From the NCBI GenBank assembly GCA_964016885.1, contig OZ024744.1, positions 69,812,001-69,876,000 of the forward strand: a DNA stretch of 64,000 nt, written 5' to 3'. Below are positions 22,876-23,525 of the stretch, in pieces. Numbering within the stretch: the first letter of the stretch is position 1; each line of letters begins with the position of its first letter. Under the pieces are notes generated by a model. The model was not told the DNA's origin. It saw only the letters and a program-made list of their open reading frames with translations, and did not search any database. The DNA is from Eledone cirrhosa. Taxonomy: Eukaryota. The translations under genes were made by a program, and so were the position numbers.

Positions 22876-23525
22876 CCAGCAGAAATTGAAAATTAGAATT
22901 GGTGCTCTGAAATAGCGATATATATATATGAATGTATATATAGTGTATTTTGCAATACGCTGTATGCTTAATTAAAAGCATTTTGAAGACCATACGCTAT
23001 TATTTTAAAGTACTGACAGTGTCAATTACTTAAATTTTCAGCAAACAGGGGAGATAAGCTGTCAGAGCTCTGTTTCGTACTTATTTGGTACTTATCATAG
23101 CTCGCTAGTCTCCCTGTTTGCTGAAAATTATGTGTGTTGGATTCTTATAGAATTCCAGTAATAATCAGGAACTGATTACACAGAGCGGTCGCCGGTCCAT
23201 TCATATATATATATCGCTATTTCAGAGCACCAATTCTAATTTTCAATTTCTGCTGGACCGGCGACGCTCTGTGTAATCAGCTCCTGCTTATTACTGGAAT
23301 TCTATAAGAATCCAACACACATCATTTTCAGCAAACAGGGAGAGTAGTGGGCTTTGATAAGTACCTACAAGTACGAAACAGAGCTCTGTCAGCTTATCAC
23401 TCCTGTTTGCTGAAAATGTAAGTAATTGACACTGTCAGTACTTTAAAACAATAGCGTATGGTCTTCAAAATACTTTTAATTAAGCATACAGTGTATTACA
23501 AATTACACTATATATACATTCATAT
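22875..23525. mobile_element. Head-to-head pair of about 320-nt HHR monomers (family B, sister of the 310-bp array)
   Basis: Left arm 22875-23199 and right arm 23198-23525 are inverted, each one unit long; (TA)n on both sides; shares blocks such as TGCTCTGAAATAGCGATAT and AGAGCGGT.GCCGGTCC with the 310-bp unit. Confidence 0.88.
23349..23395 (+). ncRNA. Type I hammerhead ribozyme with U3:A8 variant core
   Basis: GGGCU UUGAUAA GUAC-CUACAA-GUAC GAAA CAG-AGCU-CUG UC AGCUU; damaged mirror copy at 23056-23103 (-). Confidence 0.75.

Follow-up and report, generated by a model that had tools for sequence, protein, structure and literature searches.

A hammerhead motif with a family-fixed U3:A8 core pair in a likely non-LTR retrozyme of Eledone cirrhosa

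The window, a 64,000-nt stretch of Eledone cirrhosa DNA, carries on its + strand at 23347–23397 a motif that, by sequence and fold, is a type I hammerhead in which core positions 3 and 8 are U and A. We judge it highly probable that this is a type I hammerhead with U3:A8 fixed at the level of its family, residing in a non-coding repeat of ~318 nt and predicted to self-cleave after C23390, and that this probable non-LTR retrozyme is likely copied by a Penelope-like element. The core reads UUGAUAA at 23354–23360 (U3 U4 G5 A6 U7 A8 A9), as the preliminary description of this DNA had reported. It is followed 5′ to 3′ by stem II (GUAC/GUAC, 23361–23364 with 23371–23374), whose 6-nt loop II ends in A, by GAAA at 23375–23378 (G12–A14, 23375–23377), by a palindromic stem III (ACAG/CUGU around AGCU, 23378–23389) and by GUC, with cleavage predicted 3′ of C17 (23390); core to C17 thus spans 23354–23390. 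Stem I pairs 23347–23353 with 23391–23397 and is extended by a long closing helix (23324–23339 with 23402–23417) that is homologous to helices of two related families, A and C; we refer to the family of the window hammerhead as B. The flanking helices quoted in the preliminary description were found at these positions in family B and in each of the 11 core-bearing units of family A. All core positions are canonical except 3 and 8, which are exchanged as a pair, and the NUH triplet and three-way junction are present. An Rfam scan gave no hammerhead match at the family B motif and, on family A, a weak HH9 match only (17.1 bits, E 0.9); the missing match concerns no defining feature of hammerhead chemistry. 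The other Rfam matches were of microRNA type, fell on hairpins and microsatellites and were dismissed as chance; a perfect 100-nt palindrome at 62619–62718, half of which recurs in locus L305, was a source of such spurious matches.

The insertion that contains the hammerhead consists of two arms, joined head to head and flanked by (TA)n runs. The right arm (23199–23533, + strand) amounts to roughly one ~318-nt monomer of family B in circularly permuted form, whose terminal, internal (AU)n run passes into the (TA)n of the genome. The left arm (22875–23198, − strand) is a second family B monomer, set head to head with the first in inverted orientation; it stops at (TA)n, about 17–19 nt past the usual second end site. 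The monomer is low in GC, lacks an LTR and has no reading frame of at least 120 aa, and hence no RT and GIY-YIG frame between pLTRs was found in the family B element. A 25-base backbone motif has 3,525 matches in the 3-Gb genome (control, 0), and the monomer is strongly self-pairing (folding z = −5.7; 0 of 100 shuffles equally stable). A short non-coding low-GC monomer, a type I hammerhead, dispersed copies and strong self-pairing are among the features of non-LTR retrozymes, and these four are found here; on this sequence evidence family B likely belongs to the non-LTR retrozymes. In contig runs whose kind is unrecorded, and which do not count here as evidence on expression or on other species, the family was present in X1, X2 and X4, where neither 23354 nor 23359 had a listed change; X5 and X6 contained no more than scraps of it.

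The left arm contains a decayed mirror hammerhead (23056–23103, − strand), which the preliminary description had enlisted in favor of the 3:8 pair. A8 is present in this copy as stated, but its core reads AUGAUAA, giving an A3:A8 mismatch, U16.1 has changed to A and loop II holds one extra base; the mismatch and the A at 16.1 indicate that the copy is decayed and therefore offers no support for a compensatory pair. From its sequence, the mirror copy is likely dead. The core of the right-arm copy is intact. The decayed mirror core could be taken to favor random decay of a CUGAUGA hammerhead in the window copy as well, an explanation to which we give next to no credence and which is refuted by the state of the pair across the family. 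An exact 31-mer with N at positions 3 and 8, representing the window's subfamily, has 133 matches in the genome (reversed control, 0), and among the 100 listed, 99 are U3:A8, one is U3:G8 and none has C3. In a sample of 60 copies picked on the backbone and not on the core, U3:A8 was found in 56, C3:G8 in two and C3:A8 in one, with one copy gapped; starting from the two C3:G8 copies, sister subfamilies with 923 matches were traced. These two samples establish U3:A8 as the family norm and not decay. U3:A8 is fixed at the family level, and the family consensus is not CUGAUGA, in agreement with the preliminary description's compensatory reading.

Over the whole lineage the genome holds 2,978 matches, of which at least 923 are C3:G8, up to 1,995 are U3:A8 and 60 are mismatched (31 C3:A8 and 29 U3:G8), compared with about 1,300 mismatches expected if sites 3 and 8 were independent; as the copies are related, these figures count copies and not events. 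An amplified intermediate subfamily, either C3:A8 or U3:G8, was looked for and none was seen: the backgrounds of the 60 mismatched copies belong to many different subfamilies, and their frequency is about that of private decay. In backbone-selected copies, private mismatches amount to 2.9% in the core and 4.0% elsewhere (p 0.18), which gives no sign of selection after insertion. Core conservation had also been estimated in loci L001–L060, but the choice of loci was biased, and the estimate was discarded and repeated on the backbone-selected copies.

Family A is present in the window as a head-to-head array made up of 310-nt units (24577–28150), with four cores on the − strand and seven on the + strand and the switch between strands at ~25858. 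These units are 99–100% identical, and family A is a young branch, with a median distance of 0.7% from its own majority. Family B copies have diverged by 3–7%, against less than 1% in A, and on that account B may at present be silent. The preliminary description had set the window core against CUGAUGA. Family A in the window does not have that core but CUGAAGA (C3:G8), in 11 of 11 units, although CUGAUGA-type cores of the A lineage are abundant elsewhere, with 15,049 genome matches for non-A7 cores alone. A copy of family C lies at approximately 56870–57170 on the − strand, with the core UUGACAA (U3:A8) at 57019–57013. Family C, with 614 first-look candidates in the genome, is an older relative whose copies are about 80% alike; its stem I resembles that of family A and its loop II that of family B. 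The proposal that the A and B ribozyme modules and flanking helices differ entirely had to be abandoned. The two flanking helices align in register, with 8 of 14 pairs identical and 6 of 14 differing by double compensatory changes, which identifies them as homologous, and intermediate subfamilies connect families A, B and C, so that, judged from sequence, the modules of all three are homologous.

Arrays of family A are long (11 units in the window, 13 or more elsewhere), whereas only 6 of 236 family B arms exceed two monomers and 101 of 236 exceed one; this contrast may reflect age or a genuine difference in rolling-circle length. Array A is flanked on either side, at 24400–24575 and 28196–28370, by short fragments, inverted internally, of a different element that targets (TA)n, and the sequence of these fragments also follows a Penelope end in locus L300. 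Elsewhere in the window, PIF1 helicase domains at 48026–50666 (− strand) likely represent a Helitron-type remnant, and fragments of LINE-type reverse transcriptase or zf-RVT occur at 33863–38116, 59000–61981, 10607–11302 and 54386–55288.

The subfamily tree was built from 97 of 139 collinear copies, after 42 U3:A8 rows of family B were dropped at random, with positions 3 and 8 masked. A first tree with 185 rows was set aside because rows running across inversion junctions misplaced some copies. Family B forms a ladder in which C3:G8 subfamilies with longer end branches are basal and are followed by a single U3:A8 clade (100/97) that holds several further supported subfamilies. With A and C as the outgroup, the direction of change in family B is from C3:G8 to U3:A8, and the U3:A8 lineage likely went on amplifying after this switch. 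Two changes of the 3:8 state suffice on the whole tree. A single U3:A8 origin for B and C was weakly rejected (p-AU 0.034), for a group that was partly chosen after viewing the tree.

That only two switches are seen on the tree would also fit a history in which a master copy acquired U3:A8 by chance, the change was carried along by hitch-hiking and the repeat spread at the DNA level, as a satellite or foldback, with no RNA step, and the location of the copies in microsatellites, with inverted arms, would fit it too. Against such a history, stem II, stem III and the flanking helix all show double changes that recur across subfamilies. Between successive subfamily majorities of family B, all nine substitutions in stem II preserve a pair or form a new one, with double changes in four instances. 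In 17 representative copies, for which both the representatives and the structure were chosen by us, 90.1% of cells are paired as opposed to 34–47% in slid controls; two family C rows off by two columns and one row that is chimeric in the flanking helix lower the score of that helix. In these same copies both sides change in 18 of 27 pairs, with 3/4, 4/4 and 2/4 pairs of helices I, II and III, respectively, changed on both sides, and the 3:8 pair is U-A in 10 and C-G in 7, with none unpaired. The suggestion in the preliminary description that structure is kept where sequence is not, implying selection at the RNA level, holds up: 3:8 covaries in 17 of 17 copies, and stems maintained by double changes point to selection acting on the RNA. 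The core columns along the B ladder add modest evidence of selection, with one change, at N17, and none in nine other columns, where about four would be expected. Of the 12 subfamily majorities, 8, among them all those with U3:A8, have a perfectly palindromic stem III, which fits the dimeric fold described for animal hammerheads in PMC4209133.

In the window copy, the fold predicted to have the lowest energy is not the hammerhead, which when imposed as a constraint costs a further 5.6 kcal/mol. That C3U might relieve the blocking fold was considered and is unsupported, the energy gap being 1.1 kcal/mol before the switch and 6.0 kcal/mol after it. The lowest-energy fold is the first observation in favor of the main rival explanation, structure without efficient cleavage, in which the hammerhead is kept as a protein-binding or RT-recognition element, cleaves weakly or with protein and spreads independently of cleavage. 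We regard this as unlikely. The unpaired catalytic residues G5, A6, A9 and G12–A14 are invariant in all 17 representatives, in which N17 is never G, and the covarying 3:8 pair is one that forms only in the active fold (PMC3884650).

The geometry of the insertions bears on both alternatives. Among 142 de-duplicated family B insertions there are 82 head-to-head pairs, one double such pair and 59 single arms, and none is tail-to-tail alone; hence a single head-to-head pair accounts for 82 of the 83 insertions with more than one arm, and two such pairs for the other. The arms have fixed 3′ ends and random 5′ truncation. Their outward-facing 3′ ends are concentrated at position ~10 of the monomer, in the internal AU run, and at ~36, two sites that lie ~26 nt apart. 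When both ends lie at fixed sites, the pair has one of each in 57 of 60 cases (p 6e-14 versus 0.5); at least one end is off the fixed sites in 22 of 82 pairs, the window's left arm being among these ends. Of four family A pairs examined, three fit or nearly fit the same two end sites. No end cluster was found at the cleavage site (monomer 186) among family B insertions, and this avoidance is a second point in favor of a hammerhead kept for its structure.

The signature of Penelope insertion, as set out in PMC8557442, is an inverted 5′-truncated copy, a tail at one end only and (TA)n targets, and two internal start sites observed in vitro account for this signature and for the tail (PMC11167929). 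The inverted, 5′-truncated pair, the tail at one end and the (TA)n target are all found in family B. A Penelope-like element of this genome, at 2270–8000 of locus L291 (G000:C1, ~145.87 Mb), has an unbroken 938-aa RT and GIY-YIG frame between two repeats, each of which holds a minimal hammerhead with the core UUGAAAA (U3:A8). It has a CxxxxCxxC motif ahead of GIY-YIG and is Neptune-like by the description in PMC8557442. Its hammerhead motif has 6,491 genome matches, with U3:A8 in all 100 of those listed; of 20 pairs of the element, the 18 that were classified all have one end of each kind, with a 68-nt tail. Further Penelope-associated hammerheads are found at L285:2205 (+) and L294:3336 (−), one U3:A8 (UUGAUAA) and one C3:G8 (CUGAAGA). 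The genome contains many GIY-YIG elements (10,596 candidates); a comparison of the retrozyme ends with 50 of these loci gave no clear match and a 7-base likeness at one end. Other hammerhead repeats, with CUGAUGA cores and next to (TA)n, occur at L301:8568 and L301:9079, L305:2358, L296:533 and L302:4462, one of them with a 511-nt period.

From its insertion geometry, the family B repeat is likely copied by a Penelope-like element. Random 5′ truncation, fixed 3′ ends and a geometry identical to that of a Penelope-like element, together with the recurrence of U3:A8 in family C and in two Penelope families, largely refute hitch-hiking as satellite or foldback DNA, which we consider very improbable. 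A more far-reaching interpretation, which in our estimate falls somewhat short of an even chance, is that a retrozyme lineage went from C3:G8 to U3:A8 without an amplified single mutant, that the exchange arose on two or more separate occasions among retrozymes and also in Penelope-like elements, and that the strict one-of-each start sites reflect concerted insertion of animal retrozymes by a Penelope RT on both target strands.

In the mechanism that we propose, a multimeric transcript would be cut into monomers after C17, as in the retrozyme model of PMC7229834, and the monomer would be closed into a circle by a host ligase, with the palindromic stem III permitting a dimeric fold. A Penelope-like RT would then start at two internal sites of the RNA, ~26 nt from each other, with the two nicked strands of a (TA)n target serving as primers, and the two truncated copies would be joined head to head. 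Selection would act on the template RNA, giving rise to paired changes between subfamilies, and inserted copies would decay neutrally, giving rise to the state of the mirror copy. Data on the anole Penelope hammerhead, which cleaves only with protein and whose mutants are without effect on insertion in vitro (PMC11167929), lend further weight to structure without efficient cleavage, and since the mutants still insert, cleavage need not be the target of selection. In contrast to the fold predicted for the window copy, most animal retrozyme circles can freely take up the active fold according to PMC7229834.

Both the U3:A8 variant and the retrozyme class are already published. Pairing of C3 with G8 in the active fold is established (PMC3884650), and natural U3/A8 covariation at 3:8, active in vitro, was described by Perreault et al. 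2011 (PMC3088659); as presented there it is a rare variant in several examples, whereas in family B it is the majority state of an amplifying lineage. Schistosoma Cercyon Penelope-like elements were reported in 2014 to carry U3-A8 minimal hammerheads with about 1,300 genomic matches (PMC4209133). They show the same core covariation, but family B differs from their description in having a canonical-size hammerhead with 4-bp stems II and III, in being a non-autonomous repeat and in having C3:G8 ancestors and sisters kept in the same genome. The animal non-LTR retrozymes of Cervera & de la Pena 2020 (PMC7229834) resemble family B in their non-coding 170–400-nt monomers, low GC, type I hammerheads, tandem copies, co-existing Penelope-like elements and palindromic helix III with its dimer option, and they share a U.U at the base of stem II with family A. 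Unlike the retrozymes described there, family B has a fixed U3:A8, occurs mostly as one-monomer head-to-head pairs and has a hammerhead that is predicted to be blocked in the lowest-energy fold. Family B also displays the Penelope-type two-end geometry, whereas in the account of PMC7229834 Penelope-like elements are a strong candidate only. With Penelope-like insertions (PMC8557442, PMC11167929) it shares the inverted, 5′-truncated adjacent copy, the one-end tail, (TA)n and two internal start sites; in contrast to these elements as described, family B has no reading frame, and the tail in B and A is ~26 nt as opposed to the 30–40 nt reported and the 68 nt in L291. Our literature search found no paper on U3:A8 retrozymes, on Penelope tails on retrozymes or on the swap inside one lineage; supplements, including that of PMC7229834, lay outside the search and could show either.

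The value of family B lies in its record of the swap of a core base pair, with about 3,000 copies that can be counted and that fall into ordered subfamilies before and after it. It supplies nearly isogenic ribozyme pairs that are ready for measuring the cost of U3:A8 and the changes that accompany it, namely N7, a longer loop II and a stem III that is perfectly palindromic. The geometry of the insertions provides direct sequence support for the mobilization of animal retrozymes by Penelope, which has been proposed and is unproven. In genomes of this kind, thousands of hammerheads would escape a search that requires CUGANGA. If true, the crossing from C3:G8 to U3:A8 would constitute a dated natural experiment on the catalytic core of a ribozyme.
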